Source of the DNA: Octopus vulgaris | Lineage: Eukaryota | Reading direction: 5' to 3' | DNA: 64,000 nucleotides | NCBI GenBank assembly: GCA_951406725.2 | Contig: OX597824.1 | Location: 61,504,001 to 61,568,000 of the forward strand | Part shown: piece by piece, positions 3,146-61,000 of the stretch | Position numbering within the stretch: the stretch's first letter is position 1 | Layout of the letters: every line of letters starts with the position of its first letter | Position numbers and translations under genes: made by a program | Notes under the pieces: model-generated | The model's database searches: none | What the model was told of the DNA's origin: nothing | Seen by the model: only the letters and a program-made list of their open reading frames with translations

Positions 3146-3175
<30 letters not shown>

Positions 3176-3178
<3 letters not shown>

Positions 3179-3983
3179 AATTTAAAAATAAGGATAAAAT
3201 CTTTATAAGAAATTATCAGTAGTTAGCGTGAAAAACCTCGTAAGAGAAAAAATCTGTAAATTTTTCCACTTCGAAAATATTTATTTATATTATATAGAGG
3301 GTACTATTATTCATAGGTACCGCACGCTAGGAGGGAGTTTTGCAGTCAAAACTACTAAAATAAACAAATTGTACCGAATGCAAAACTTCAAATCAAGTCA
3401 TTTAAAAACAGAATTTAGTTACATATCACCTGTGATTTCGCAATCAATGCAGAATATACATTCTATGCTCTTCAGTGCAACGAACTCAAGACATATAAGA
3501 AAAAACACAACATTACATACCCGACAGCCAACCGTAGAATTCGCCACAGCATGTACGAATATTTACATATCTATGAAAATGGCGGGCTTATTCGCAATGC
3601 ATTTCGGTAACAACTTGCCTACTCGGAACAAAAATTCAGTATTGAACTATTCCGGTGAAAAATATAAATTTAAAAATAAGGATAAAATATTTATAAGAAA
3701 TTATCAGTAGTTAGCGTGAAAAACGTCGTAAGAGAAAAAATCTGTAAATTTTTCCACTTTGAAAATATTTATTTATATTATATAGAGGGTACTATTATTC
3801 ATAGGTACCGCACGCTAGGAGGTACTTTGCAGTCAAAACTACTAAAATAAACAAATTGTACCGAATGCAAAACTTCAAAGCAAAATGACTTGCTTTGAAG
3901 TCTTGCATTCGGTACAATTTGTTTATTTTAGTAGTTTTGACTGCAAAATCCCTCCTAGCGTGCGGTACCTATAAATAATAGTA

Positions 3984-3985
<2 letters not shown>
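3176..3985 (-). mobile_element. candidate non-LTR retrozyme: 488-bp tandem unit (about 1.45 copies) with inverted 5' arm
   Basis: 3178-3395 repeats at 3666-3883 (period 488); 3788-3883 is inverted at 3890-3985; contains an intact hammerhead; (TA)n on both sides; no credible ORF. Confidence 0.8.
3418..3481 (-). ncRNA. type-I hammerhead ribozyme, intact core
   Basis: GTTGCA-CTGAAGA-GCA(TAGAAT gtat ATTCTG cattgat)TGC-GAAA-TCAC ag GTGA-TA-TGTAAC; all core nucleotides present and stems I, II and III pair. Confidence 0.88.
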
Positions 3986-4030
<45 letters not shown>

Positions 4031-7896: not shown

Positions 7897-9162
7897 ATAT
7901 CTTCATCCCATAACTAATGCGGTTTTCTCAATTGTATGAACTAAAAGTCGGAGGGGGATGGGATAAACTATCTGCATCAAATTGCTATAAAAGGTAGTAT
8001 TTTTACCTTGTACTTATTCCTAGTGCAAGTTTTCGAGAGTGCAGTTCAATTTTGACAGTTATATTTTGAAAGCTATAATAGAAATGACAAAGGAGCATAT
8101 CCGCCATATTTCTATTTATGAGTTCAATAAAAGCAACAACGCAATGGAAAGTGCGAGGAATACTAATGCAGTTTCATGGGAATCGGACAATAAGCGTAAG
8201 CTAGTGTCAACAGTGGTTCCAGAATTTCCGAGCCGGAAACTATTGCCTAAAAGACTAACCTCGTCCAGGAAGATCTGTAGAACCCGATGAGGACGTCCTG
8301 CAAATCTTGGAGGAACAAAATCCCATCGTAACAGTTGAGGAACTAGCAGAGAAGCTTGGATTTGGTCATTCAACCATTCATCGATACCTGCGTGCCATCG
8401 GAAAAACCAGCAAATTGTGTCAATGGGTTCCTATATCGGAGTCTAATTGCTCGCAGAGAGTTCATCTGTGATATTCTTTGCTGTCACTTCTCACGAATAA
8501 ACCTTTTTCCCACCGAACAGTGACTGGTGAGGAGAAATGGGTTCTCTTTAAAAATGTCAAGTGCCGGAGACAGTTGGTAGGGAAAGGAGAAACACCGGCA
8601 GTCCAGGCTAAAGAAGGTCTTCACCAACATATAGTGTTGTTATATTTGGTGGGATATGAAAAGTTTAGTCCACTTTCAACCTTGAAACCCAAACGAAAGG
8701 AGATCTACAGCGAGCAGCTTGAGCGGCTTAAATCAGCGCTTGAAGAACAACGACCATTTTTGATTTCAAGACGAAAGGTGTTCTTCCATCAGGATAATGC
8801 TCGGCCACACAGCGAAGATGACATTCCAGAGGCTGGAGCAGTTCGAATGGGAAACGATGCCGCACCCACCATATTCGCTGGACATTACCCTATCTGATTA
8901 TCATTTAGTCTGTAGTCTTCAAAATCATTTGGATAGAAAAATTATGAATTCTGTAGACAAGATCAGAACAGTACTGGAGGAGTATTTTCGTCACGCACAT
9001 ATGAATCTTGGAAGATGGGTCTTGCAAGTCTATCAGATAGATGGAAGAACATTGTAGAAAATAAAGGAGAGTATATTTTAGATTAAAAGAGGATGATGTT
9101 TATCTTAATTTTGAAAAATAAAAAGTATTAAAAAAATGCATTATTTATGGGATGACCCAATA
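7897..9162 (+). mobile_element. full-length decayed mariner (DD34D) transposon
   Basis: TIRs TCATCCCATAACTAATGC / GCATTATTTATGGGATGA, about 1.27 kb apart; frameshifted transposase at about 8084-9086 with VTGEEKW, FHQDNARPH and PHPPYSLDITLSDYHL. Confidence 0.95.
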
Positions 9163-16344: not shown

Positions 16345-18085
16345 TAATTCTAGAAATAGAGTAGAAAGGGAATCAGTTAAGATTCTGGAAGAGGCAATGG
16401 GGTCAGGCTCTGCATCCAGAATTTCAGCAGCGAGGTTGGCACTCGACCAACATCTCAAAGCTAAACACGAAGGGTGCATTGTCAGGGTTAATTTACGAGG
16501 TGATCAACGTCACCGGATGGGCCTGCGTAGTAGAGAGCTAACGCGGCAACAACGCAACAATAAGGTCTTTGAAGAACAAATATATAATCGATCAGTAAAT
16601 GAACTCGAGGAGATGTCCAAGGTGTTTCATGAGCATTCCACCCAGCTTTTCAGGAAGGGCGGTAGATTTTCCGCGTCGTGGGTTTTCCGCGTCTCTTGGG
16701 GGGCGGGAAGCGGAATGCTGTGAAGGACCGATCACAGCTGCGGAGGTGGAAGAGGCATTGTCGGACTGCAGCGAGGACAAGTCGCCGGAACCTGGTTTGT
16801 CAAGTTTCGCTTTTTCTAGCACTTGTCTCACTTTCCCCCTTAGTTCATCTCCCTGAGCTTTTGGTATCTTTATGGCTATCTCTTCAATGGGGGCTATTAT
16901 GTCCAAATATGGAATGCGCTTGATGGTTGTCGCAAAGTTGAGACCTTTGTTTAGTACTGCTTCTTCAGAGCTTTCTAAATGTCGGTTACTTAGATTACTG
17001 CTTTCACAGGTGGGTGACGGACTTCAGTCTTCATTCTCTGACCTTTGAGTTCCATAACTTCTTAATCTCGTGTATCTTCACCATTTCACATTCTTTCATA
17101 TACGACTTTGCTAGATCTTGTTGGATTCTCTTTCTATCATCATCTCTGGTTATTTTCCTGAGTAATGGAGACATCGTTGTGTCTTGCCCCGATTCGTGGC
17201 CGACCAAGTTGGAACGCATGCTCTTCCGTTTTTTTGTGGGAGGGAAGGGCACCTCATGTAAGGCGCTCTATCTGCTGCCAGACCCACTGAAAGGTGGGCT
17301 AGGGATGCCGTGGTTAAAATACACAGACATGCACTGAGGCTGAAGCACCTCTGGCTCTACCTGGACGGTATGCAGGTGCGGTCTCCGTTCGCTAGACAGT
17401 TGTTTCCAGAGTTCACCTCGTTTATTGAACTGGACCCATGGATTAAGCGTAGACCACAGTTGGGAGCTTGGCACGCAGAGTGTCGTCAGACACTCGTGAT
17501 TCTCTCCCAAGCGGGCAACGCAGGTGGCGGGGGTTCCGCCGCGTTCTTTTACAGAGGGTTAGTAGAGTTTAGATGTGATGCCCTGGGAGAAACCCTGGGC
17601 TTCGATGACAATCAGCTCGCCAGCCTGTTCCGAAGAACATTCGGGCCAGAGTCTTTGGACAATTTCCATAAATCCCTGTTCGGGACAAACTCTTTAGGCA
17701 TGATGCTTCGCCACGCCAACTTGTCCAAGATGCGGTCAGGACAATGAAACTGTCCTACACGCAATTGTGCAATGACCGAAGATATCAGAACTTTGGGTTT
17801 ATGTCGAACAACTGTTGTCGCATCTGAGAAGAGTACGACTGTCAGCCAAATCTATAATTAAGATTGTTCCGCAGTCTTCCCTCAATAGTGAAGAGCAGGT
17901 TTGTTTCCTTTGCGTAGTAGCTACCTCGAAGGAGGTAGTGTGGAAGACGAGAGTGAAAGGGATCATAACAGGTACTTTCATCTCCAGCCTCGGGTTGGTG
18001 AACTTCTCCCTTTTCCATATGAAAAGGAAAATATGGATCGAGAGGAGATGCCTGTCTCACGGAATATTTCGAAAGAGATGTAAAT
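16345..18085 (+). mobile_element. decayed Tx1/L1-clade LINE ORF2 remnant with RT core missing
   Basis: CEGPITAAEVEEALSDCSEDKSP (pre-RT), PLKGGLGMP, C-terminal CxxC...ETVLHAIVQ zinc-knuckle remnant, KEVVWKTR. Confidence 0.8.
16790..17185 (-). mobile_element. Penelope-like element N-terminal fragment, antisense within the Tx1 remnant
   Basis: Minus strand SEEAVLNKGLNFATTIKRIPYLDIIAPIEE...KVRQVLEKAK; the LxKGLNF motif precedes PLE reverse transcriptases. Confidence 0.75.
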
Positions 18086-19816: not shown

Positions 19817-19911
19817 AAAAATATGGAACGCTTCACGAATTTGAGTGTCATCCTTGTGCAGGGGCCATGTTAATATTCTCTGTATCGTTCCAGTTTTAGA
19901 ATAAGTACTGC

Positions 19912-19912
<1 letters not shown>
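19817..19912 (-). pseudogene. U6: U6 snRNA retrocopy lacking about 11 nt at the 5' end
   Basis: GGCAGTACTTATTCTAAAACTGGAACGATACAGAGAATATTAACATGGCCCCTGCACAAGGATGACACTCAAATTCGTGAAGCGTTCCATATTTTT; ACAGAGA box intact, AGC triad mutated, (GT)n upstream instead of a promoter. Confidence 0.95.
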
Positions 19913-19954
<42 letters not shown>

Positions 19955-22548: not shown

Positions 22549-24706
22549 AAGCTGGCTGAGAAATTTACTAAAATACTAGCAGAACCAGAGACATTTCCCA
22601 AATCCTACAAAATTACAGACCAATAACTTTTCTCCCTACAATGTACAAAGCCTTTACTGCAATAATATCACAGAGAATGGACAAATACCTGGAAGAAGTC
22701 AATCTGTTTCCAGAAGAGCAAGAAAAGATGCTCTAAGGGCTCATATGGCTGTAAAGATCAGTTACTGATCAATAAAGCCATAACTGAATACAACCGCAGA
22801 AATAAGAAGTGTCTAAGTGTGGTCTGGATCGATTGCCGAAAGGCTTTTAATAGTATTCCCCACACATAAATCCTAGAAACACTAACCGTGAACAAGATAG
22901 CACCAATACATGGCATAGATTACTACAACTCCAGACAAGAGAGGGACAGCTAAATACCAAATCCATCCCCATTAAAAGAAGACTATCCCAGGGAGACACG
23001 CTTTCTCTGCTTCTTTTCTGCTTGACACTGATACCTTTATCTAACATGCTAAATAGAACTGCATGTCCATACAACTGTTTCGGCAAATTAATCAGCCATC
23101 TCTTTTATATGAATGACATAAAACTGTACGCTACAAATGATAAACAGCCGGAAACACAACTACAGATAGTATATGAATTTACTACAGAAATAAACATGAA
23201 ATTTGGCCTAGAAAAATGAGCCAAAGCAACCTTGAAAAGAAGAAAACTAGTTAAGAGTAGTAACATCACACTAGATAAAGAAAATGAAATAAGAGAATTA
23301 GACCAAAGCCAAACATGATAATACTTAGGAATCAATGGACTAGATACGATACAACAAACCCATATGAAAGAGAAGATAAAAAAAGAATACTATAGATGAG
23401 TCAGACTAATACTGAAAAGAGAGCTCAATGCGAAAAACAAGATAATAGGTATTAACACTCTAGCCGTCCCAGTTATAACTGGACTTTAAATGAACTAATC
23501 GAAATCGACAAGAAAACAAAAAAATAATAATAATGACAGGATTTAAGATGCCCCACCCAACATCTGACATAGAAAGACTATATATACAAGGTATCGAAAA
23601 TGGTAGAGGCCTTAAACAGCTAGAAAACGATTACAAAATAACCACCATAGGACTACAGAAATACTTACTTCAGAAGTAAGAAAGACTAATACAAATAGTA
23701 ACAAAACACGAATAAAACAAAAAACTGTTTTCAGTCTTTAAGGAAGCTGATGAATACAAAAAAGAAATCATACCACCTAACAAATATGAAGAAAAAGAAG
23801 AAACAACAAAAGCTGTAAAACAACTTAAATCCAAACTAAAACTGGAACAGCAACGGATAGTGATTAAACGATGGCAAGAAAAGCCACATCATGGCAAATT
23901 CTGGGTTAAACTGAATAGAAAAGAAAATTCTAACAATGACTGAGAAACTCAGGACTCAAAGCAGAGACTGAAGGATTTCTAATTGCACAAAAGATCAAAG
24001 TGTTCCCGCCGGAAATCACCAAAAACACGTAATGAAAAGAAATACATGAATATGTGGATATCGAGAAGAAATAATAAATTAATAAATCATATTGTCTCTG
24101 GCAATATGATTCATTATTTATTCCTTATATATATATATATGGAATATATTCACAGACGCGATAGAGTTGGAACCTAGATATATTAGAAGCTATACCAACC
24201 TTATCGAATAACAAGAGACATAAAATGATATAAGCACACGTCAGAAAAGGTCAGAAAATATGAGTAAGCAACCATATGCTAATACACACAGATAGGGAAA
24301 TTAAGGCCTATAGGCCGGATATAGTTGTCAGAAATCATAAAAAAAGTGCTTTCTAATCGACGTATCAATATCAACAAATGACAATGTTTCTCTAAAAGAA
24401 ACGGATAATCTTTCAAAATACAAAAATCTGGAAATAGAGATAACTCGAATGTAGAGCCTAAAAACAGTAACAATTACTATCATAGAAGGTACATTAGGTA
24501 TGAAGAAAAATATTCAGATAAATACATAAAAAACACAAAGACTAACAAGTATATATAGAACATAGAAAATAAAACTACTAGGCACCGGACACATCCTACG
24601 CAAAACACTTTCATTACAAAGCAAAATAAGAATACCACAACAAACTACAGCACATACCCAAGTCACACATAGTAGTGCAGTGAAAGCGCATGATAAAAAT
24701 AAGACT
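22548..24706 (+). mobile_element. R4/Dong-clade LINE, 5'-truncated and decayed
   Basis: Homologous to 28372-30195; RT (QGDTLS, HLFYMNDIKLY) and REL endonuclease (HRRDRVG, RPDIV) remnants; same 3' UTR. Confidence 0.92.
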
Positions 24707-26585: not shown

Positions 26586-29500
26586 GAGAGAGAACATCGG
26601 GGACGTTTAACATGTGAGAGCGAAAAAACAGTGGCTCCGAAATATATCCACAAACATCAGAAACAAAAACATTGTATGGAGCTAAAATATAACTGACAAA
26701 GGATTGGACTATATCCGAGTAAGTAATACTCATTGAAATTTATTGCTATTTTCCAAACGAAATGATGTATTTTAACTCGATAGCACATGTAAACATGCTT
26801 GATACATTACGATCCATCATCACCAGATCATCTCCGGCCCCAAACACCATGTACAAAAAAACTACGAATAAATTAAAGAATACCGGTATTATTCAACCCA
26901 AGAATAACAACCGGGAAGTACGTACTTTGAACCTGTTACAAAAAAAGTACGAAAAACTACGCGTGTAAAACAATGTGACAACAGAAATGAACGGATCGGT
27001 ACCCTACGAAAATGACGACCGTCAAAATAATGGGCCGGACGTTATTCCTCATGTCCTGCAAATAAAACCAAAAAGGCATAAATGGACACGTGAGGAATAC
27101 ATTTCAATCCTACACGCTTACTTTACAGCAGTGTTCTACCCAAAGAGCGAAAACACAACGACATATACATATAAAATATGGAAGCAAAATAACATAAATA
27201 AAGACCTGGATATAGCAATGAACCCTAATAACCTAGCTAACGTGCGAAAATATATTCTCAACGCAAAGAAAATATCAGGAATAGAAATAGAACATTTAAA
27301 AGAAACAATACACCAGGAAAATATAGATAGAAGCCACACAACAATGACAAATACTATTAACACTGAAACAGTAAAACACGAAGACAAACGTAACACTTCC
27401 AACAAAAACGATGTAAACAAAAAACAACAAACCCAGACCGTAAGGATACATAATAATACACGACAAACAACAATCCAAAACACGACAAACAAACATACGA
27501 ATGAGAAAGAAAGCGACACAAATCTAAAGCCTGGAAACAACGAAGGGGAGCCTAATGATTATGATGTTATAAAAAGTAGAATAATCAAAGAACTGAAAAC
27601 CACAGAGCTCAAAATGGAACACCGACAATACATCCCAAAAATAAATATAGACAAAACAACAACATCAATTATAAACAGCATAAACCTAGCCGTCAAGGAA
27701 CTAATAGCCACTGAAACAAAAAGCGATATCACTGAGCTAAATAACTTAGTATACGCAGCAGCCACTGCAGCCACAGAAGAAGCTCGATACTCACTCAAAC
27801 CCATCCAAACAGGAGTACCACCACCCAAACAAACCCTGTGGATAAATAACATCCAAAACAAAATACAAAAAATGAGAAAAGATCTGTCGATTCTAAATGA
27901 AATCAGTAGACAATCAACGCTACTAAGCAACAAAAAGAAAACAAAAATACTCCGAAAATACAAGACAAAAAAGATTTACCTGAGATAAAAGAAAAGCTAA
28001 AGCAAGATATCCTTGCCAAAGCACAAAGGATCCGCCGGTACGAGAAACTCCAACGTTTCTTTGAACAAAACAAACAGTTCAACTCCAATCCCCAAAAGTC
28101 CTACCAAGAATTTGGCAAAAATAAAATAGAAATCACTGTAGCGCCAACGGTGGAAGAAGTGGAAGAATTCTGGAGAGAAATATGGTCGGCGAACGAACAA
28201 CCAAAAAAAAAAAAAAGGAGTATTAAAACAACAAACTCAGCATCTGAGGAACTTTGGACCCTCATAACAACTGAAGAGGTCATCCAGGGACTGCAAAAAC
28301 TAAGCAACTGGAAGGCACCTGGGCATGACAAGATCCCCAACTTCTGGTTGAAATATCTGACAGGAGTGCACAAAAAGCTGGCTGAAAAATTTAACAACAT
28401 ACTGGCAGAGCCAGAGACAATGCCTGGATGGCTCACGAAGGGGAAAACCATCTTAATTCCCAAATCAAATGAGACAGCAAAACCAGAAAACTACAGACCT
28501 ATATCCTGTCTCCCTACAATGTACAAAGCATTTACTGCAGTAATATCACAAAGATTGAACAAGCACCTGTACGAAAACAAACTGTTTCCAGAAGAGCAGA
28601 AAGGATGCCGCAAAGGCTCATATGGCTGTAAAGATCAACTAATGATCAATAAAGCCATAACTGAAGACAGCCACAGAAAGAAGAAAGGCCTCCGTATGGC
28701 CTGGATCGACTACCGAAAGGCGTTTGATAGCATCCCCCACACATGGATCCTCGAAACACTAGCCATTAACAAAGTTGCACCAACAATTATAAAATACATA
28801 GGACACTCTATGAATAAATGGCAGACAGTGCTACAGCTCCAAACATAAGAGGGACTTGTAAAAACCAAAGTCATCCCCATTAGAAGAGGAATATTCCAGG
28901 GAGACACGCTCTCTCCACTCCTTTTCTGCTTGGCACTGTCACCTCAATCGGATATGCTAAACAGAACTGAATGCAGATATAAATGTTACGGCAAAACGAT
29001 CAGCCACCTTTTATATATGGATGACCTAAAACTATACGCCACAAATGACAAACAGCTGGAAACACTACTAAAGACAGTTCATGGATTTACCAAAGAAATT
29101 GATATGAAATTTGGATTGGAGAAATGCGCCAAAGTAACCCTGAAAAGAGGAAAACAAGTTAAGAGTAGCAATAGCACACTAGATAAAACCAATGAAATAA
29201 AAGAATTAGACCAAAGCCACACTTACAAATACTTATGAATACATGAACTAGATAAGACACAACACACACAAGCGAAAGAGAAAATAAAAAAAGAATATTA
29301 CAGACGAGTTAGATCAATACTGAAAACAGAGCTCAATGCTAAAAACAAGATAATAGGTATGAACACTTTAGCCGCCTCTTCATGGCAAATACTGGACTAA
29401 ACTAAATGCAAAAGAAACAGACAAAGAAAAAGCCCAGCAATGGTTGAGAAGCTCAGGACTCAAAGCTGAGACAGAAGGATTTTTAATTGCAGCACAAGAT

Positions 29501-30200
29501 CAAAGCCTCCCCACCAGAAATTACCAAAAACATGTAATGAAAAGAAATATAACAAGTAACTGCAGAATATGTGGAGATGGACAAGAAACAATAAATCATA
29601 TTATCTCTGGCTGCCCAGTCCTGGCTAAGAAGGAATATATTCACAGACACGACAGAGTTGGGACCTATATACACTGGAAGCTATACCAAGATTATGAAAT
29701 AACAACAGAAAAAAGATGGTATAGGTACACACTTGAAAAGGTCACAGAAAACGAGAAAGCAACCATACTCTGGGATATGCCAATTCACAGAGATAAAGAA
29801 ATTAAGGCCAACAGACCAGATATAGTTGTCAGAGATCATGAAGAAAAAAATGCTTTCTAATTGATGTATCAATACCAGCAGATGACACCGTGTCTCTAAA
29901 AGAAATGGAGAAACTTACAAAATACAAAGACCTGGAAATAGAGGTAACCAGAAAGTGGAATCTAAAAACAGAAACAATTCCTATCATAAAAAAATATTCA
30001 GACAAATACATAACAAAGACATCAGGACTTACAAACACATCTAACATACAGAAAATTGCACTACTAGGCATTGCACACATCCTACGCAGAGCACTTTCCA
30101 TACAATAACCATCACAACAAATCATAGCACATACTCAAGGCACACAGAGCTGCGCCCGGTAGGGAAGTGAAAGCACGCGAAAAAAAATATACTACTGAAC
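26586..30200 (+). mobile_element. near full-length R4/Dong-clade LINE (RT plus restriction-like endonuclease), inactivated
   Basis: Frameshifted single ORF 26975-30108: RHKWTREE N-terminus, NWKAPGHD, NYRPISCL, WIDYRKAFDSIPH, QGDTLSP, HLLYMDDLK, CRIC..ETINHIISGC, RHD, NRPDIV, KxxKYKDL; flanked by (AAT)n at 26455-26585 and 30201-30293. Confidence 0.96.
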
Positions 30201-31446: not shown

Positions 31447-31877
31447 TCACGTATGTTATTTCATTTCAGAAATACAACATTCACTGGTGATCTCACATTG
31501 CTTAAGATATTCGCGCGTGAATTAAAATTTTAAAAACTAAAAGTGCAAACCACAGGAGCCAAATAGTAGAAATATTAAATATATTTTATAGACAATGCAA
31601 TTGTTGGTATGTTCGTTGGTTGATAACATCATTTTGAGAGAGCAGGAGAGAGATTAAAAGAGAGATACCACAGAGACTTAACAGAAAGGTTGATGGCACA
31701 AACTAGACTTGGTGACAGCTTTGAGCAAAGGAATGCTACATGCTTACACCGTGTGAGAAAATTGTTTTAGAGAACTTGAAGGAAATGGAGGAGGAAGAAC
31801 AGGTAGAAAAAGAAGAGGGGTAGTAAACGGAAGGGTAGATGGATGTAGATAGAACAGGCTCTGCAATAATTAATATA

Positions 31878-33135
31878 CGAGGAGTGTTCATTAAAGAATT
31901 TCTCTGACTCACTCACCAATTCTTGCAGGAAACGGAACTTGAATAGGTATTATCATACATATTCCTACATGACAAATTATAAATTGCCGCTTTCCTCTAG
32001 TATTAGTTTGTCTCTTACGGCTGCTAAAATGGACGAAGATGTTATAATGGAGGCAATTCAATGCAGATCAGTGATGATGTTCTTATACTTGAAAGGTCAT
32101 ACACAAAAAGAGACTTTCGATGAGATGAAAGATGTTTATGGTGACGATGCACCATCATACAACGTAGTTAAGCACTGGCACCGCCAGTTCAAATGTGGTC
32201 GGACATCAGTGGAAACTACTCCTATACCTGGACGACAACATACCGCCATTGATGACAACACTATAAAGTGGAAGCCACCATTTTGGTGGATCGTCGCGCA
32301 TAACTATTCAGTAACTAGCACAAGAGGTGAAGATAAGTTTATGGTCCGTGAAAAAAAGATATTCACAACCATTTGTACATACGGAAGTTGTCTGCACAAT
32401 CGATTTCCCGGATGCTCACACCGTTTCAGAAGTAGGAACGAGTCAATTACGCCCAGGTTCAATGCGCCAAAAACATGAGGAAGACCTTTTCGTCAGACTT
32501 ATAACACAGGATGAAACATGGGCCCATCACTATGATTCTGAGACTAAAGTCCAGTCGAAGCAAGGAAAGTATGATAACTCACCACCTCCAAAGAAGGCTC
32601 GTATTCTCAGCTGGCGAGGTGATACTCACAGTCTTTTGGGACCAAAGTGGAGTAGTGACGATGGATTTTCTGGCAAAGGGCACTTTAATTAACGGGGAAT
32701 ATCTTTTCTCTGCTGAAAAAATTGCGGGATGCATCTAAGCAGAGAGGTGAGGCGTGCTGATCAAAGGAGTCCGCCTCCTTCAAGACAACTCCCCAATTCA
32801 CAATGCGCATGTTGCCCAGATGAAAGCACACTCTTGCGGTTATAAAATTCTTCATTATCCCCCTTACTCTCCCGACCTCGCACCATCTGGCTTTCACCTC
32901 AAAAAACATGAAGTGTTTTTTGAAGGGGAAGCACTATTTGGATGTTGATCAACTTATTTCCGAGGTAAAGTCTTGGCTCCTGACGCAACCTATCGACTTC
33001 ACATCTGCATAAAGCGTTAGAAGTTTGACAGCATTGTTGGTGGCTATGTAGAGAAGGACTAATAATTATGCCAAGCTTCGTTTATCCCAGTTTTTGGGAA
33101 GTGGGTCAAGAAAAATCTTTAATGAACACCCCTCG
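31878..33135 (+). mobile_element. full-length decayed mariner (irritans-like), TA-flanked
   Basis: TIRs TA|CGAGGAGTGTTCATTAAAGA and TCTTTAATGAACACCCCTCG|TA; ITQDETWAHHYD, LLQDNSPIH, YPPYSPDLAPSGF; frameshifts. Confidence 0.95.
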
Positions 33136-40970: not shown

Positions 40971-42185
40971 CGAAGTGTACAGTATAATATATCCATCACG
41001 GCTGATCTTACCAATCGGTTTCGCGCTAGGGGTACAACGGAATTTTGGTAACAATCTAATTATATAACTCTACGCTCATCAGACGTAGCCGATATGGAAT
41101 GAAATATGGCAACTGATCTCTATTGTTGGAGGTGACAGAACGCATCCAGCTTGCGGTTGCTGTGAAAAGATGATGAAAGGAACCGGGTAGGGGATTTACC
41201 AATACATCGCCACTGGTTGGTTATGCTGTAAGTTGATAAGAGCTACTATGAAGTGTTTGTGGGAATTGTAAGCGTCTTTCAGCTTGGTGTTCTTGTGAAA
41301 GTGGGATATGTGTAGTGATACTGTATAACTTTTGCAGGAGATGTAGGCATCCATTACTGTGTTCATTAGAGTGTTTTCTTTCTATATTGGTTAAGGTATG
41401 GGGGCTTTATGTGTGCATTGAGTGTGTGTAGGGGTACAATATGTGTGGGAGTTTATATGGGAGGTGGTGGGAAACGATCCTTTTGGTATGTGTCCGCCGT
41501 GTTGGGGCGTACATGTTTGTATGTGGGTGCGTTGATGAATGCTCTGGTCAAACTCTTTGCCGGATTCCAGAGTATTGGAGGAGAGCTGAGGCTGGAGGAC
41601 TGATGATCGTAGTCATGATGGGGCATGCTCGAATGATCTTCCTTTCATGTGGGCTAGGGTTAAATACTTCACCTCTGCTATTCAGATAAATACATGGATG
41701 CTGGGTGCTCTTTAAAATCGCTTTCTCATCTAGGAATAGGCTGCACTTCCTGCTGCTATTAAAGTACGGTTTACATTTCTCCAGGATATTCTTCTTTATG
41801 TTCTACTCAGTGTGTGTGGCTTTCTTTCAAAGATGAAACGTGCTTTGGTCAGGGTTGTGGCGTTGCGTCTCTGTGAGATGTCAAAGGAGGACTTGTGGTT
41901 GTTGAAACGGATTCTGAAGGGGCCTTGAGTTATTCCTACATACTTTCGCATATTCGGTTGCCCATTTGATCCTATAGCTGTTGCCCCTGCCTTATATACA
42001 ACGGTCTCCGTGTTACAGTGGCCATTCAGTGGACATGTGTTACCCCTACATGAGCATTCTGCTTTTGCCTCGGGCGTTGGTCTACATACTAAAATCTTTT
42101 TTACATTAGGTGCACAGGTATAGGAAATTCTTAGGGTATGCCTATTGAATATTTTGTCGAATCTATTTGTACGGGTGAAGCTAAG
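40971..42185 (-). mobile_element. Penelope-like element 3' part (GIY-YIG endonuclease, 3' UTR, hammerhead)
   Basis: KIFNRHTLRISYTC...CSCRGNTCPLNGHCNTETVVYKA...KYVGITQGPFRIRFNNHKSSF; ends in (TA)n. Confidence 0.88.
40999..41091 (-). ncRNA. type-I hammerhead ribozyme, intact core
   Basis: CGGCT.acgT-CTGATGA-GCGTAG...CTAGCGC-GAAA-CCGATTGG-TA-Agatc.AGCCG. Confidence 0.8.
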
Positions 42186-42299
42186 AAAAGTTTACTCGGG
42201 TTGTAATATTTCAGGAGAGAAATTTATTAATTTCAGAGAAGTACAAAGCTCTAATCACCTTCAAAATAGGATCCTCTAACTTAAATGCACTTGTAGCGC

Positions 42300-47830: not shown

Positions 47831-48157
47831 TCTGCAGATTACAAAAAGGATAGATTTTATTACGGTAATTTACAGCAGTAAATACTTTATAGAGTTTGAA
47901 TTTTAAGTGTACTGTGTACTTTCACCAAATTTGGAACAAATGACATTACCAAGTAGTATGTTGTACATTGTGCTTGTTCATAATAATACACAACTACTGC
48001 TAGAACTTGAAATATTAAAAGCAAATAATTTCCAAGGTAACATTTTTATATCTTACCGTAATTGTCATTTTGATTTCTCGATCTCTCCCCTTAACTCTCC
48101 TCTCTCTCCCCCTCTTTCTCTCCACCTCTCTCTCTCTTGCTATATATATATATACAT

Positions 48158-48255
<98 letters not shown>

Positions 48256-48271
48256 ATGTATGTATATATGT

Positions 48272-48980
48272 ATAAAAGTTACTATATGAAAGCATTATTT
48301 CTGTTAAAAACAATAATAATGAGGCGGTTAGCAAGACTTCTACATTAAGAGGTATAATATTCAATATTTGAATAAAAGAAGGGTAAAAATACCGCTTGCC
48401 AAAGATGAAAGCGAAAGCTTCAAAAACACCAATCCTACGATAAATACACACACGAGCAATGCAATGAACACTTTAAAAAATAAGCCTATCTTTAGGATGG
48501 AATTTACACATATCAATATTAATTGATTTCATGCTGTGCTTGGCAAGCGGTATTTTTACCCTTCTTTTATTCAAAACTTTAATATTATACCTATAAAGGT
48601 AGAAGTCTTGCTAACCGCCTCATTATTACTGTTTTTAACAGCAATAATGCTTTCATATAGTAACTTTTTTATTGTTTACGATAGTTTTCCCTGTAAACGG
48701 AGTGGGACGTTTAAAGTTCGAAACGGACACGAGTTGAATATTTTGGAAATAGATGTTACTATCCCCAGCTGAAGATTGCAAAGCATGTTTTCTCATGCAC
48801 AGCTTGAAACCAATTGATATTGGGGTATGTAAACTATCTTCAAATTCCATCCTGAAGGTAGGCCTACTATTTAAAGTGTTCGTTGCATTGCTCGTGTGTG
48901 TATTTATCGTAGGATTGGTGGTTTTTGAAGCTTTTGCTTTCATCTTTGGCAAGCAGTATTTTTACCCTTCTTTTATTCTT
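48272..48980 (+). mobile_element. candidate non-LTR retrozyme: 406-bp unit (about 1.1 copies) with inverted 5' arm
   Basis: TTGGCAAGC(G/A)GTATTTTTACCCTTCTTTTATTC at 48540 and 48946; 48272-48539 is the reverse complement of 48797-48978 continuing into 48540-48668; contains a hammerhead; microsatellites on both sides. Confidence 0.78.
48763..48825 (+). ncRNA. type-I hammerhead motif
   Basis: CCCCAG-CTGAAGA-TTGC aaa GCATG ttttct CATGC aca GCTT-GAAA-CCAATTGA-TA-TTGGGG; the partial inverted copy implies consensus stem III ATCAATTGAT and stem II TGC/GCA. Confidence 0.78.
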
Positions 48981-49023
48981 ATATACATACATACATACAT
49001 ACACACATACATACATACATACA

Positions 49024-49056
<33 letters not shown>

Positions 49057-54795: not shown

Positions 54796-55069
54796 GTGAC
54801 GTTATGTTTATATTGCATGGAGTTATCGTTGTATTTATTTTCAGGAGATTTCTAAATAAGGGGAGGTAGTGAGTGATTTCTTCCGGTGTAAGGGAGATAA
54901 TCGCTTAAAATTTTTTTTCCCTATATATATGTATATATATCTAGACACATATATGCATACATATATATGATATATAGATATATCTGTATACTGTATCTAT
55001 ATCTATATCTATATCTATCTATCTCTCCCCCTCTCTCTCTCTATATATATATATATACATATATATATA

Positions 55070-55712
55070 ATGTTCGTAATGGTGTCTACAAATGACTGCC
55101 AGGACTTTTTGATGTTTCTGATGTTAGTGGGTGTGTATGTGTGCGTGAAGGACCAATCGACTTGTGCAATGTCATTATTGATCGCTTCCCAGTATGCATT
55201 GTGGAAATCCATAGTGTCAAATGGATGAACAGGAGGGATGACATTTGTTTTGCATTTTGGCCGGTGAAATCTCAGATCACAGAGAACCATGTCATGATCA
55301 GAGAGTAGAGTTTTCTCCACTGCAACATTATGGATAGTATCAGTGTGATTGCTGAAAATTAAGTCTAAGACGTTTTTGTGACATCTCGTTGGTTCGAGCA
55401 CCAATTGGAACAGGAAGAAATCATCCATGAAGTCAAGAAGCGATTCCACTGCCTCCCTTGCAGGGGTTGAGAGAGAAGAACCTGGCAGCAGACTGTTTGT
55501 AGACCAGTCAACCCCGGGAAGGTTGAAGTCTCCCATCATTAAAATGTTGTCAGGTTGACACTGCTGATTGAAACACTTTATGTTGTTGAGGCATTCCTTG
55601 AAGCATGGTAGGGGCGTTTGGGGTGGTCTGTAGAGCCCAACTACTGTTACGTTGTTGGTTTGACTGAATACAGCGACTGCTTTGCAAACACACCCCATTA
55701 AGATCTGCAAAT
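55070..55712 (-). pseudogene. APE endonuclease segment of a CR1/L2-group LINE (inverted 5' part)
   Basis: VVGLYRPP, MMGDFNLPGVDW, PTR..NVLDLIFSN, LSDHDMV. Confidence 0.92.
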
Positions 55713-57312
55713 AAATCTAAGTGTCGAATCCCTAGAAATAGAAAATCTCTCATCAGGAAAATTAAAAGAATTAACAAAAAAATCAACAAGCTGAAATACT
55801 GTCAACAGCAACACACCAACCTGACTGTCATCTCGTCGCTAGAGATTAAAAAACAAACTCCAAAACAACATGATGTCTATCATCAATAGTCAGAGAAGAG
55901 CTGAAGAGGCCTGGGCCATTGAGAAGATCAAACTCAATCCCAAAGTGTTCATTTCATTTGCAAAAAGACACAGAGTCACTGGTTCTACTGTTGGCCCTCT
56001 GATTGAAGAAAATGGTACTCTTCAAGACAATGCCAAAACCATGGGAGAGATATTGCAGAAACAATATTGCTCTGTTTTCTGCAATCCTGATATGACTGAT
56101 CTGGGCTGTATCAGTGATGTTACTCCCCAATACACTTTATCAGACATAACCTTTGGCGCTCCTGATGTGTTAGCAGCAATAAAGGAAATGAAGCATAATT
56201 CAGCAGTAGGTCCCGATAGTTTCCCTGCTTGTGTCTTGAAGATGTATCAACACCAAATTGCACCCCCTCTAGCCAATCTGTGGCGGAAGTCACTGGATGC
56301 TGGATATATCGCAGAAGACCTTCTATCCCAGTCTGTTGTCCCAGTTTTCAAGAAAAGAAACAAATCGCTTGCCGTGAATTACCGTCCAATCTCACTCACC
56401 TCTCATATCATTAAGGTATTTGAGAGAGTGCTGAGATCGCGTATGACTCACTTCCTTGAGAGTCATAATATGCTGAACTCCAACCAGCATGAATATATGA
56501 ATATATATATATGGATTCCATTTTGATGACATTTTGAGAGCCTTGGGAGAGGGTTCCAACACTGATGTCATCTACCTTGATTTCAGCAAGGCCTTTGACA
56601 AGGTTGATCATAAGATCCTTTTGAGAAAGCTGTCCAATATTGGTGTCACTGGAAAGCTACTGCAGTGGATCAAGTGCTTCCTGTCTAACAGAACCCAACA
56701 TGTTGTAGTCGAAGGAGTCAAATCCAGCCCAGCCAAAGTCAGCAGTGGTGTCCCACAAGGCATTGTGTTGGGCCCACTTCTCTTCATCATCTACATTAAT
56801 GATATTACTGACACCATCAAACACAGTAACATCATAACCTTCGCTGATGATTCCAAGCTCCAGAAGGTCATCAATGGCGTGGATGTATTCACTCCAACGA
56901 CGCCGTGAACGCTACATTATATGTATGATGTGGAAAATATTCCATCAGCACTGACCGAATGATGTTGGCATCACCTTCAAAATACATCCAAGGCTTGGAC
57001 CACGTGCCATCCGTCCACAACAAAAATCTAAAGCGCATCACATAACGACAATACGGCACAATTATTTCACCTCAATTGGACCCGCTCTCTTCAACATTAG
57101 ACCAGGACACGTCAAAACAGAAACTGACCACACAAAATTCAAGAAGTCTTTGGACAAATTCCTTCAAACAGACCCGGACAAACCACCCACACCCGGATAT
57201 GTCTCCGCAAACAATAACTCTCTGCTCGAATGGGCCTCGGTGCTCAAATCCTGAATTGAAAGATTTCGCCAGGGCAAATACTGGCCAAAACCTTTCTAAG
57301 TTATTCTAAGTT
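55713..57312 (+). mobile_element. CR1/L2-group LINE RT and 3' end with internal deletions
   Basis: SAVGPDS, NYRPISLTS, VIYLDFSKAFDKVDH, SGVPQGIVLGPLLF, FADDSKL; tail TTCTAAGTTA twice, then (TA)n. Confidence 0.93.
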
Positions 57313-58035: not shown

Positions 58036-61000
58036 TAGTTGAAATTTACCAAAAAACAAAAGACGAAGCAAGGTGTGTGTACAACAAGCAGGTGTCTTAG
58101 TTTGACGCTCGGGAAAGTGAGAAATTCTTTTACATTTCGAGCCTACGCTCTTCAACTGAAAGGAATAAGAGAAAATAACCAGAGAGACAAGAAAAAACTT
58201 GTGAATTTATCTATAAAGCATGGCCGCTGTTTGGGAGAAAAAGTTTGACAGGAGAGTTAGAACGAAAGGGGATATACTAAAGTACTAGTGATCCAAAAAT
58301 AAAGGTGCGCTTACGTGCATGTGTATGTAACAATATTTATGCGTCTGTGTGTGGATAAGGGCTGGTGACCTTTCCGTGTGGATGTGTGAGTGTGCGTCTG
58401 TAATATATGGGTATGCAGAAGATGGTGTTTGGTGTGTGTGCTGGGAAGTGGTCAGTGCTAGTGTGTGTGGAGTGATGTGGTGTGGTCGTGTGTAGTGTTG
58501 GTGTGGTGGTAGTATGGTGTGGCGGTGTGGGGTTGTGGGTGCGTGTGGTGGGTATGTGGGAGTGGGGTGTGAGGGGATTGTGGTTGGCGGGGTATCAATG
58601 AAGAGAGAAGGTGGATAGGAGTGAAGAGAGGGAGTAGGTGGCAGAGCAGGAGAGTAGAGGTGGGTAGGAGGGAAGAGAGGAAGTGGGTATCAGATAAAGA
58701 GAGAAGTGGAGGGGCAATGAAGGGGCAGGTGCGGGGAGAGAGAGCAAAGGCATGGTCCACAGAACGCGCTCTGGCAAGGGCTGTGTGGATATTGGTGAGG
58801 GGAAATCCACAAAAGATGAAGTGGCGAGCCATAAGTTGAGTCTGAGTTTAACATGATGGTTGTCACCGCAGAAGGTGAAATTGGGAGTAGGGGGTGGAAA
58901 GCTTGGTGTAGGTAGGGTACGAGGAGGAGACGTTAAAGTAGGAGTGTGAGTAGATGTGTTTGTAGTGGATGGAGTTAGTGAGAGCGGAGTGGTGTATGCT
59001 GACCGAAATGTCGAGAAAGGCGACGGAAGTATTGGAAATAGTGCAGGAGAATGCGAGGGCAGGATGGAAGGATTGGACAAAAGAGAGGAAGGAGTCTAGT
59101 TGTTCCCGGGATAGTGAGGTCGCTCCGATACAATCATCAATATAACGACCGTATACTTCGGGAGTGAGACCAGTGAATCGTGAGAATATTTGGGCTTCAA
59201 CATAGTCAACAAATAGGCTCCCATAGTTGGGGCCCATTCTCGTTTCCATGCCCACTCCCGATACCTGTTGGGTAAAATACCCCGTGAACGAGAAGCAGTT
59301 GAGGGTGTGAACAAGTTCGACACATGAAGTGTGGAGGTGTCAGTTTGGGTGTTGGGTCGAAGATCTAAGAAGTGTTAGAGTTCAAGAAGTTTTGTAGGAT
59401 CACCGTATATAGACTTATGATATCAAGAGGGGAGAGACGTTTAGAGGGGTCAGGAGGGAAGGAGAAAGTGTTGAAGAGACGGAGAGCTTGGTTTGTGACG
59501 TGGATGTGGCAGGGGAGGGAAGCCACTAGGCGGGGCAAGGATACTGTCGAGGTATTTTGAGATCAATTCCGCGGGGCAGTTACAGGCAGAGACAATGGGG
59601 CAGCCAGGTTAGTTGGGGTTGTAGATTTTGGGGAAGAAGTAAATGGTAGGGTGTATGAAGTGTGGATAATGAGGTTGCAGGCGGTAGGAGGAAGACGGGA
59701 GGAGGTGATGACGTCATGGATAGAGGAGGACACAGTCTGTTGATAGTCAGGCCTAGGGCTTAAAGGCAGAAGGCAATAGAATTAGGTGTCTTGAAGTTGG
59801 CGGAGAACTTCAGCTTTGTGTCTGCGTGTCACACCACCACAGTTATACCCAGCCGGTTTTATGATGATGTCGTTGCGGCGTCGGAGACATCGAAGGGCCG
59901 AGAGGTCGGCCGGGGTTATGTTAAAATATTGGGGACGCCTGCGGAAGTTAAACCGGTCCTAACACGTTGGCAGATGCTAGCAAAATGATCGAGTGCCTGG
60001 AAGTGGCCAGGAGCTAGCATCCAGTGCGATGGTCGGCGGCCAACCTAGGTGAAACAGTCCTCTTAATTAGATGCAGTTGGAGTTTTGTGGAATAGTGCAT
60101 ATAGCCTGATGCGGCGCAGAAAGCTATGAATACGGGCCTGAAATTCGTTACTGGATGAAGTGAGGGGGATGAAGTGTAGACCCTTACTGAGAAGAGAGCG
60201 CTCCGGCCCAGAGAGGGGAAGATCAGGAGGAATGGTAACAACAGACTAAAGCGGGGAAGGGGTGGATGAGTTAGATGTGGGGGTGAGGGGGTAGTAAAAA
60301 GCTGGAAGGAGGGAGAGGAGGAGTGAGTGGAGAGTAACAGAAGGGTTGCGGTGGAGTGTATCGGGGATTGATCGTGGTGGAAGTTGTAGTGGCATCGGGT
60401 GTGACAGAATGAAGGAGTGAGTGGAGTTTATGCTGTTTAGTGCGAGCGAGGGACTCGTGAAAAACATGATTTAAATAGATTATGAAGCGTAGAGTGGAAT
60501 ATGCAAAGGAAGGTGAAAGAGAGGAGAAAAAATGGAATAAGTGAGAGGGAGAAGGCGTTCGAGGTTTTGTATCTTGGAGAGATTAGAAAGTATGGTGCAT
60601 GCATAAGGTGGTAAGAAGTAGTACGGAGTATAGGTAAGATGGCAGAAGTAGAGTTGAAAGTGGAGTGGAAATGGAGGCTGAAAAATTTGGGATGAGGTAG
60701 CAGTGAAGGCAGCGACTGAGAGAGGAAACGTGGCTAGAGAAGTGGGTTTTTCTAAAAATCAGTAGAGAAATCTTAAAAGAAGTTTGAAAGTAGCGCAAAG
60801 GATTCGTGGAACGGTGCTTCTTTAGGCGGTGCTGAAGGTGAAGGAGGAAAGATTTATAATCGGGCATTCTGGAAAAAGGAGCAAAAGGAAAAGTCGTGAA
60901 GAAAAGAAAAAAAGGTGAAAGTGAGAGAAAAGGAGAGAGAGATGCAAAGGAACAACGTACGGAGTAAGAAAAAACAAAGTTCAAAAAGGTTCAAAGAATT

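Follow-up and report, generated by a model that had tools for sequence, protein, structure and literature searches.

The locus at positions 48144–49053 of the window, the whole 64,000-nt stretch of Octopus vulgaris DNA under analysis, represents a single copy, now decayed, of a non-coding repeat of 414 nt that is dispersed in the genome. The repeat is apparently a newly described, old and inactive family of non-LTR retrozymes mobilized by Penelope-like elements (PLEs), an element type that is already known. Its dispersed copies have scattered 5′ ends, two classes of 3′ ends, arms joined head to head and arms that wrap around the unit, together with a conserved hammerhead, a strong fold and no coding constraint. 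The explanation that we favor, with moderate confidence, is that a non-coding 414-nt retrozyme was pasted into (TA)n in trans by the RT-endonuclease of a Penelope-like element, probably of the Neptune type, likely from circular RNA and with two fixed internal start sites. No published description of the family was found in the octopus and cephalopod literature on hammerheads, retrozymes or Penelope elements; the supplements of the papers cited here may include it among mollusc ribozymes.

Repeat family and consensus

The genome assembly (2.8 Gb, 227 contigs) was searched with the forward arm of the locus, which gave at least 94 matches (40 scored of 355 candidates), and with a 27-mer from the ribozyme at up to three mismatches, which gave 143 matches, segmental duplicates included, and none in the control. 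The size of the family is at least about 140 hammerhead copies. A consensus of 414–415 nt was built from 29 loci and numbered with c1 at window position 48673; the unit is non-coding, has a GC content of 34% and lacks an LTR. Sixty distinct loci yielded 108 arms with a median identity to the consensus of 90%. These loci were gathered by similarity searches that favored long arms, one of which selected for the tail, and the counts are not a census. The closest inter-locus pair among 2372 is only 96.7% identical at non-CpG sites, which suggests that the family, as judged from the copies sampled, is inactive in this assembly. Segmental-duplication clusters on C14 (73.4–74.7 Mb) and C20 (22.8–23.2 Mb) have multiplied single insertions of the family.

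A sister family, with a 418-nt consensus also built from 29 loci, is 79% identical across the whole unit. At first look it gave 557 candidates, and its loci (L214–L243) have two 3′-end classes as in the 414-nt unit. Comparison with the sister indicates that the ribozyme, the rod fold and the two start sites are conserved signals, and that the B-box and the open frame are incidental.

The earlier note had described the unit as not alignable to a 488-nt hammerhead unit elsewhere in the window, and the local alignment score of 24 agrees with this (shuffle mean 22.7, maximum 31). The short motif TTTGAAG(C)TTTTGC, which had been offered as a link between the two, is absent from the consensus (TTTCGC there) and from the sister family, and its sharing is probably due to chance. 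Kinship of the 414-nt unit with this neighbor or with a 485-nt tandem was rejected, the alignment scores being within those of shuffles. The 488-nt unit (window 3174–4009) consists of two head-to-head arms, 711 nt on the minus and 128 nt on the plus strand, between (TA)n tracts, and with a redundancy 97% identical it looks younger than the 414-nt unit. The 485-nt tandem (L063:1–1983, C13 near 25.76 Mb) comprises at least four units, 99.8–100% identical, that end in (TA)n and bear a long-stem-II hammerhead, resembling a young retrozyme-like array. Two same-strand hammerheads in tandem were seen at L172:2896–3709 in a 519-nt family, whose palindrome and distal stem II differ from those of the 414-nt unit and whose match to it is confined to the ribozyme. 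For experiments, younger families of this genome are a better choice than the locus under study, whose copy has decayed.

Architecture of the locus

The locus consists of a microsatellite, an inverted arm on the minus strand, a forward arm on the plus strand and a second microsatellite. The left microsatellite target, (TACA)n/(CA)n/(TA)n/(TG)n, occupies 48144–48270 (Tandem Repeats Finder at 48144–48242 and 48208–48243, and the sequence itself), and the right target, (TACA)n, occupies 48983–49053 (Tandem Repeats Finder). The inverted arm (48271–48542) is 5′-truncated, runs from c130 to c413 with 90% identity to the consensus, and adjoins the microsatellite with its 3′ end, which is of the “long” class. 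In coordinates of the forward arm, it corresponds to approximately 48794/48797 through 48978 and then 48573 through 48671, and the two pieces are 85% and 93% identical to the forward arm. The passage of this arm through the redundancy point was thus correctly recognized in the earlier note. It retains the 3′ half of the hammerhead on the minus strand (48511–48539, c133–c161) without the CUGANGA core. The head-to-head junction lies at 48540–48542, where the two arms overlap by 3 nt.

The forward arm (48540–48980, 94% identical to the consensus) spans approximately 1.1 units, from c282 to c414 and, after wrapping to c1, up to c316–320, a 3′ end of the “short” class. Its first 33 nt (48540–48572) recur at 48946–48978 with 32 of 33 letters identical and an offset of 406. 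The terminal redundancy that had been noticed is therefore real and is a by-product of the wrap. The proposed monomer boundary at 48572/48978 is merely the point where this arm stops; the 3′ ends of the family fall at the equivalents of about 48585 and 48672. The segment between these two end classes, the “tail” (48579–48672, approximately c327 to c414, plus strand), contains a 13-bp hairpin at c363–391. The 406-nt length of the locus copy is the 414-nt family unit less 8–9 nt, with the gap near 48734. Further along the plus strand are a B-box-like 9-mer, GTTCGAAAC, present at 48716–48724 as reported and not conserved, and a type I hammerhead at 48763–48825.

Hammerhead ribozyme

The core of the hammerhead at the locus is formed by CTGAAGA (48769–48775) and GAAA (48806–48809), and the predicted cut follows 48819, which is c155. 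In the consensus, the hammerhead has a 6-bp stem I, CUGAAGA, a U·U, UGC/GCA, a 3 × 3 internal loop, a 5-bp distal stem II, GAAA and a palindromic stem III. The first reading had held that the two diverged arms together restore the palindrome and the stem II base, and the 29-locus consensus indeed has ATCAATTGAT and TGC/GCA. The helix II base is U·U in this family, as opposed to the usual G10.1–C11.1 in PLEs; the functional axolotl retrozyme ribozyme HHR_Amex2 provides a precedent for U·U (PMC7229834).

The core is intact in 35 of 52 arms, and 92.5% of the cells are paired over the 17 pairs in 46 family sequences. Covariation within the family did not exceed that of shuffles (152 of 500 reach the paired percentage), as expected for neutrally decayed copies. 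The sister consensus retains 17 of 17 hammerhead pairs, three of them through two-sided changes. A pattern that fixes only the core and the stem II base gave 108 sites in the genome and none in the control. Of 40 fetched loci with the core pattern, most of them from other families, 19 have both stem I and stem III paired, compared with 1.2 in shuffled and 7.6 in swapped flanks. In the isolated consensus, the local MFE is 3 kcal/mol lower than the energy of the hammerhead fold. Within the 64-kb window, Rfam at the gathering threshold found no hammerhead and just one U6 copy, and a strict hammerhead descriptor missed the degraded copy at the locus; the ribozyme call therefore draws on the family and its relatives rather than on the locus copy by itself. 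On this comparison the type I hammerhead of the family is real, and cleavage is predicted from its sequence. The ribozyme at this locus is probably catalytically impaired, because position 48804 breaks one stem II pair and 48810 one stem III pair, and the inverted arm has no core. In the consensus, a helix III of 3 bp capped by an AAUU loop is possible within a monomer, so the modeled structure alone does not call for dimer-dependent cleavage.

Insertion footprint

The 5′ ends of the arms are scattered across the whole unit (60 loci, 108 arms). The 3′ ends were counted in 104 arms from 58 loci after two segmental duplicates had been dropped, and 79 of them fall into two windows approximately 87 nt apart, 44 with a median of c327 and 35 with a median of c414. 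A microsatellite lies within 25 nt of the 3′ end in 49 of the 108 arms and of the 5′ end in 10, which supports a dispersed element with microsatellite-anchored ends. Partial tandems are frequent, with 24 of 108 arms longer than one unit and a maximum of 1.5 units. Arms meet head to head at 34 junctions and tail to tail at one (60 loci; 33 head-to-head junctions when duplicates are dropped), and 20 of the 34 overlap by 1–9 nt as judged from BLAST ends.

The two outer ends of an insertion tend to belong to different classes. Both ends could be classed at 20 of the 33 junctions; 18 of these combine a short and a long end and none has two long ends, a discordance of 18/20 against an expected 0.495 (P = 1.7e-4). 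The same short/long pattern was counted in 10 of 15 pairs of the sister family by reading of the list, and the locus itself conforms, with the inverted arm ending at c413 and the forward arm at c316–320. None of the 108 arms ends at c141–160, around the ribozyme cut site; this rules out end-primed linear monomers released by cleavage as the template.

Endonuclease-positive PLEs are recognized by their (TA)n bias, their partial tandems, a truncated copy in inverted orientation and a tail confined to one side (PMC8557442). The copies show this textbook Penelope-like footprint, which points to the mobilizing enzyme. At AT-rich DNA, the anole Poseidon protein nicks both strands and extends them, and its tail of 30–40 nt is defined by two internal RNA start sites of reverse transcription (PMC11167929). 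Such copies could also be imagined as a DNA-level foldback or MITE-like element with the arms as terminal inverted repeats and a chance hammerhead look-alike, as the long imperfect inverted repeat between microsatellites at this locus might suggest, but that hardly credible reading is largely refuted by outer ends that are systematically unequal, by arm lengths and inner ends that differ at every locus, by the many one-armed loci and by hammerhead pairs that covary between families.

Template and RNA fold

In 39 arms the sequence wraps the unit, with c414 running straight into c1, and the 620-nt arm of L212 extends from c118 to c322, unbroken across the upstream cleavage site, and crosses the cut site twice. 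The template is therefore a circle or an uncleaved multimer, in line with the multimeric or circular template inferred earlier from one arm. All 39 wrapped arms of the main set begin at c167 or later, past the cut site, where 1.45 would be expected to pass it (P(0) = 0.22). The idea that the template owes its 5′ end to the ribozyme cut was rejected, as this deficit is not significant and L212 contradicts it. Derived variants are common to arms of the same locus at 2.89 per 100 sites and to arms of different loci at 0.69, an approximately fourfold excess that suggests one source variant per insertion. The present locus is an exception, with one derived variant common to both arms in 262 sites.

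The circular consensus has a predicted MFE of −116.6 against −80.7 ± 6.3 for 60 shuffles (z = −5.7), with 68% of the unit paired, and the circular MFE of the sister family is −116.9 against −80.3 ± 6.5. The fold of the locus copy is unremarkable (z = −1.7 circular, −0.85 linear). The sister consensus retains 87 of 102 pairs (null mean 76, maximum 88 in 5000). Pairing is kept in 23 of 36 variants common to at least five arms and in 32 of 160 singletons, a contrast inflated by transitions among the shared variants; with Watson–Crick transitions only, the figures are 14/20 and 28/55.

Complete tandems with two hammerheads were absent from the 60 loci, and the search with a gapped pattern yielded an arm of 1.5 units and a false match. 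No same-strand ribozyme pair approximately 415 nt apart was present among the 100 of 143 matches listed. One of four runs contained a 447-nt contig with identical first and last 30 letters; the kind of run was guessed to be RNA and the organism label is a different one. The contig would correspond to a closed cycle of 417 nt under assembly at k = 31, which we take to be the value used. It has intact ribozyme alleles, no B-box, a depth of approximately 6 and CpG-type decay, and as an unreplicated observation from a single run with no DNA control it could equally be a circle, a tandem or a terminally redundant molecule. The other three runs have family-like contigs, with no full cycle among the records listed.

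Search for an autonomous partner

The genome is rich in PLE remnants of the Neptune/Nematis type (8709 candidates, 150 scored), a type assigned from the cysteine motif before GIY-YIG and from look-alikes in an atlas (GIY-YIG in 47% of one cluster). Pfam gave no match for three of the PLE proteins. The 414-nt unit was found in none of 50 GIY-YIG loci, and no linked ORF was found in 30 sister loci. Among 80 unit loci, the search for a linked PLE returned just neighboring fragments near L086, L089 and L123, which by our reading are unrelated neighbors and were rejected as the partner. On C14, pairs of ribozymes spaced by 3.8 kb were considered as a sign of such a partner and proved to be segmental duplications with no ORF between them. 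Neither an RT plus GIY-YIG ORF between pLTRs nor a pLTR homologous to the 414-nt unit was found for this unit; what it has in common with L199 and L210 is the ribozyme core type alone. The Penelope-like reading is weakened by this outcome, in that the loci searched held no autonomous element with the 414-nt unit and no tandem master.

In L199 and L210, a hammerhead of the same core type lies downstream of a same-strand Neptune/Nematis-type GIY-YIG remnant, and the two loci are 74% alike in both the remnant and the downstream ribozyme. By sequence they tie the ribozyme group, not the 414-nt unit, to Neptune-type elements. The ORF-then-ribozyme layout occurs close by in only two of 40 related-hammerhead loci and at a distance of 2.2 kb in one more (L194), and PLE fragments number in the thousands in this genome. 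The stretches L210:2106–3100 and L199:1773–3050, with the U·U/UGC-GCA stem II base, represent a candidate autonomous lineage for the ribozyme group. At L077:1350–1460, two short head-to-head hammerheads with U·U at the stem II base lie just past the 3′ end of a near-intact Neptune-type ORF with inverted arms. PLE-like ORF fragments were also recognized by motif on the minus strand of the window: a GIY-YIG domain at 41796–42191, an RT core at 58863–59339 and an N-terminal piece at 16592–17023.

Model of mobilization and alternatives

In the favored explanation, Pol II or read-through would probably account for transcription of a tandem master locus. The hammerhead would cut after c155 and a host ligase would close the monomers, as has been demonstrated with the retrozymes of coral, mussel and axolotl. 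A PLE protein would then nick both strands of AT-rich DNA, with one cDNA primed at approximately c414 and the other at approximately c327, by analogy with the anole Poseidon protein in vitro and its 30–40 nt tail. Both cDNAs would stop at variable points and be joined at their growing ends, leaving an inverted arm and a partial tandem. Going further, we tentatively suggest, as a possibility that falls somewhat short of an even chance, that a ribozyme-made RNA circle of 414–418 nt carries two conserved RT start sites approximately 87 nt apart, one per nicked strand, and that these are the minimal cis-signals for hijacking a telomerase-like reverse transcriptase, because the length, the fold and both sites survive across two 79%-identical families while the B-box and the frame do not. 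If this is true, each two-armed insertion would record both start sites.

The same PLE-mobilized element might instead have been copied from an uncleaved linear multimer or a terminally redundant transcript, with the hammerhead as a transcript processor or a conserved pLTR relic and with circles playing no part in insertion. We consider this unlikely, though it is not easily set aside. Ribozyme mutants leave the insertion of anole Poseidon unaffected and unprocessed RNA is its main substrate (PMC11167929), so a circle is not required. Twin priming on a multimer would give the head-to-head geometry without copying one template twice, and the fact that all 39 wrapped arms begin no earlier than c167, past the cut site, leans the same way, albeit with the P(0) given above. 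Against a linear template stand the closed unit of 414–418 nt with a strong circular fold kept in both families, and a tandem master that was not found in the assembly; the cyclic 447-nt contig fits either template.

It is improbable that the copies are no independent mini-element but truncated pLTR remnants left by an autonomous Neptune-type PLE. The pLTRs of PLEs do bear type I hammerheads with palindromic helix III, and the same core type lies downstream of the GIY-YIG remnants in L199 and L210. The ORF of anole Poseidon starts at the ribozyme and has the tail inside it (PMC11167929), and the consensus has an ATG frame of 112–132 codons, which in its 132-codon form starts 16 nt before the core, with 112 codons reached by 1.5% of 2000 shuffles. 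However, the wrapped arms pass from c414 to c1 with no ORF between, the copies have no common non-microsatellite continuation past c414 or upstream of c1, and no ORF is linked to the unit or sister loci searched. The coding reading of the frame was itself rejected: 334 of 1292 changes are synonymous (0.26 vs 0.29 expected), many arms have frameshifts in common and the frame is broken in the sister family. The 132-codon frame is by this comparison unconstrained and neutral.

The earlier note had taken the unit for an independent retrozyme family, possibly transcribed by Pol III; the dispersed non-coding hammerhead element stands, and the Pol III part does not. A Pol III-transcribed, SINE-like hammerhead repeat of the kind of the Schistosoma SM-alpha repeats, which are similarly short and have a type I hammerhead and a B-box-like motif (PMC6765202), is very improbable here. 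In favor of it, GTTCGAAAC is the commonest state of the 9-mer (15/47 arms) and is located within a CpG-rich stretch that precedes the ribozyme. The B-box pattern GTTCRANNC is matched in 18 of 47 arms but is lost in the other 29 and in the sister consensus, which has GTAAGGAAC in its place; a B-box-like match arises in 3.4% of shuffles, and one pattern scan found no A-box-like match upstream. Pol III terminates at T runs, and the sense strand has nine runs of T4–T6, one of them 25 nt after the B-box and one within the hammerhead, which would be expected to stop the enzyme long before the unit was complete. Unlike in SM-alpha, then, the box is unconserved and internal T runs abound, which makes Pol III unlikely, and the 9-mer is probably not a Pol III promoter.

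Relation to known elements

PLEs have been proposed as the mobilizer of metazoan non-LTR retrozymes (Cervera and de la Pena 2020, PMC7229834). Like the 414-nt unit, with its GC content of 34%, these are non-coding elements of a few hundred nucleotides, in the range of 150–450 nt, with low GC, a type I hammerhead and a highly paired predicted circle. They form tandem dimers to large multimers, whereas the copies of the 414-nt family are scattered arms, none longer than 1.5 units and many of them in inverted head-to-head pairs, and no complete dimer turned up among the loci searched. Circles and cleavage of the 414-nt family are predicted from sequence. The passages of that paper drawn on here make no mention of inverted arms or microsatellite targets.

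The PLE-derived retrozymes of Li, Clavereau and Pollet (bioRxiv 10.64898/2026.07.22.740005) have the same proposed origin and partner, and include monomer-rich families. The evidence there is co-occurrence and pLTR homology in Xenopus; here it is an insertion footprint. Families are termed active in that work when they have at least two consecutive complete ribozymes; the 414-nt family has yielded no such pair and no homologous pLTR.

Endonuclease-positive PLEs themselves (Neptune, Poseidon and Naiad; PMC8557442, PMC4209133, PMC11167929) resemble the family in their partial tandems, inverted 5′-truncated copy, tail at one end, (TA)n bias, palindromic helix III and two RT start sites. The family differs from them in having no RT/GIY-YIG ORF and in a tail of approximately 87 nt instead of 30–40 nt. 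The return of animal retrozymes into the genome has so far been proposed from co-occurrence and pLTR homology. From the footprint of the 414-nt family and its sister, two RT start positions can be predicted, and the published in vitro PLE assay offers a direct way to test them.

Other features of the window

Two diverged copies (72–79%) of an A-rich non-LTR retrotransposon with RT motifs lie at 22599–24672 and 26969–30149. The segments at 55015–56908, 8472–8897 and 31870–32692 are presumably LINE-like endonuclease/RT and mariner-like transposase fragments, as judged from motifs. The U6 snRNA match is full length (19817–19922, minus strand, 94.5 bits), has an (AC)n tract over its 5′ end and is probably a retrocopy.
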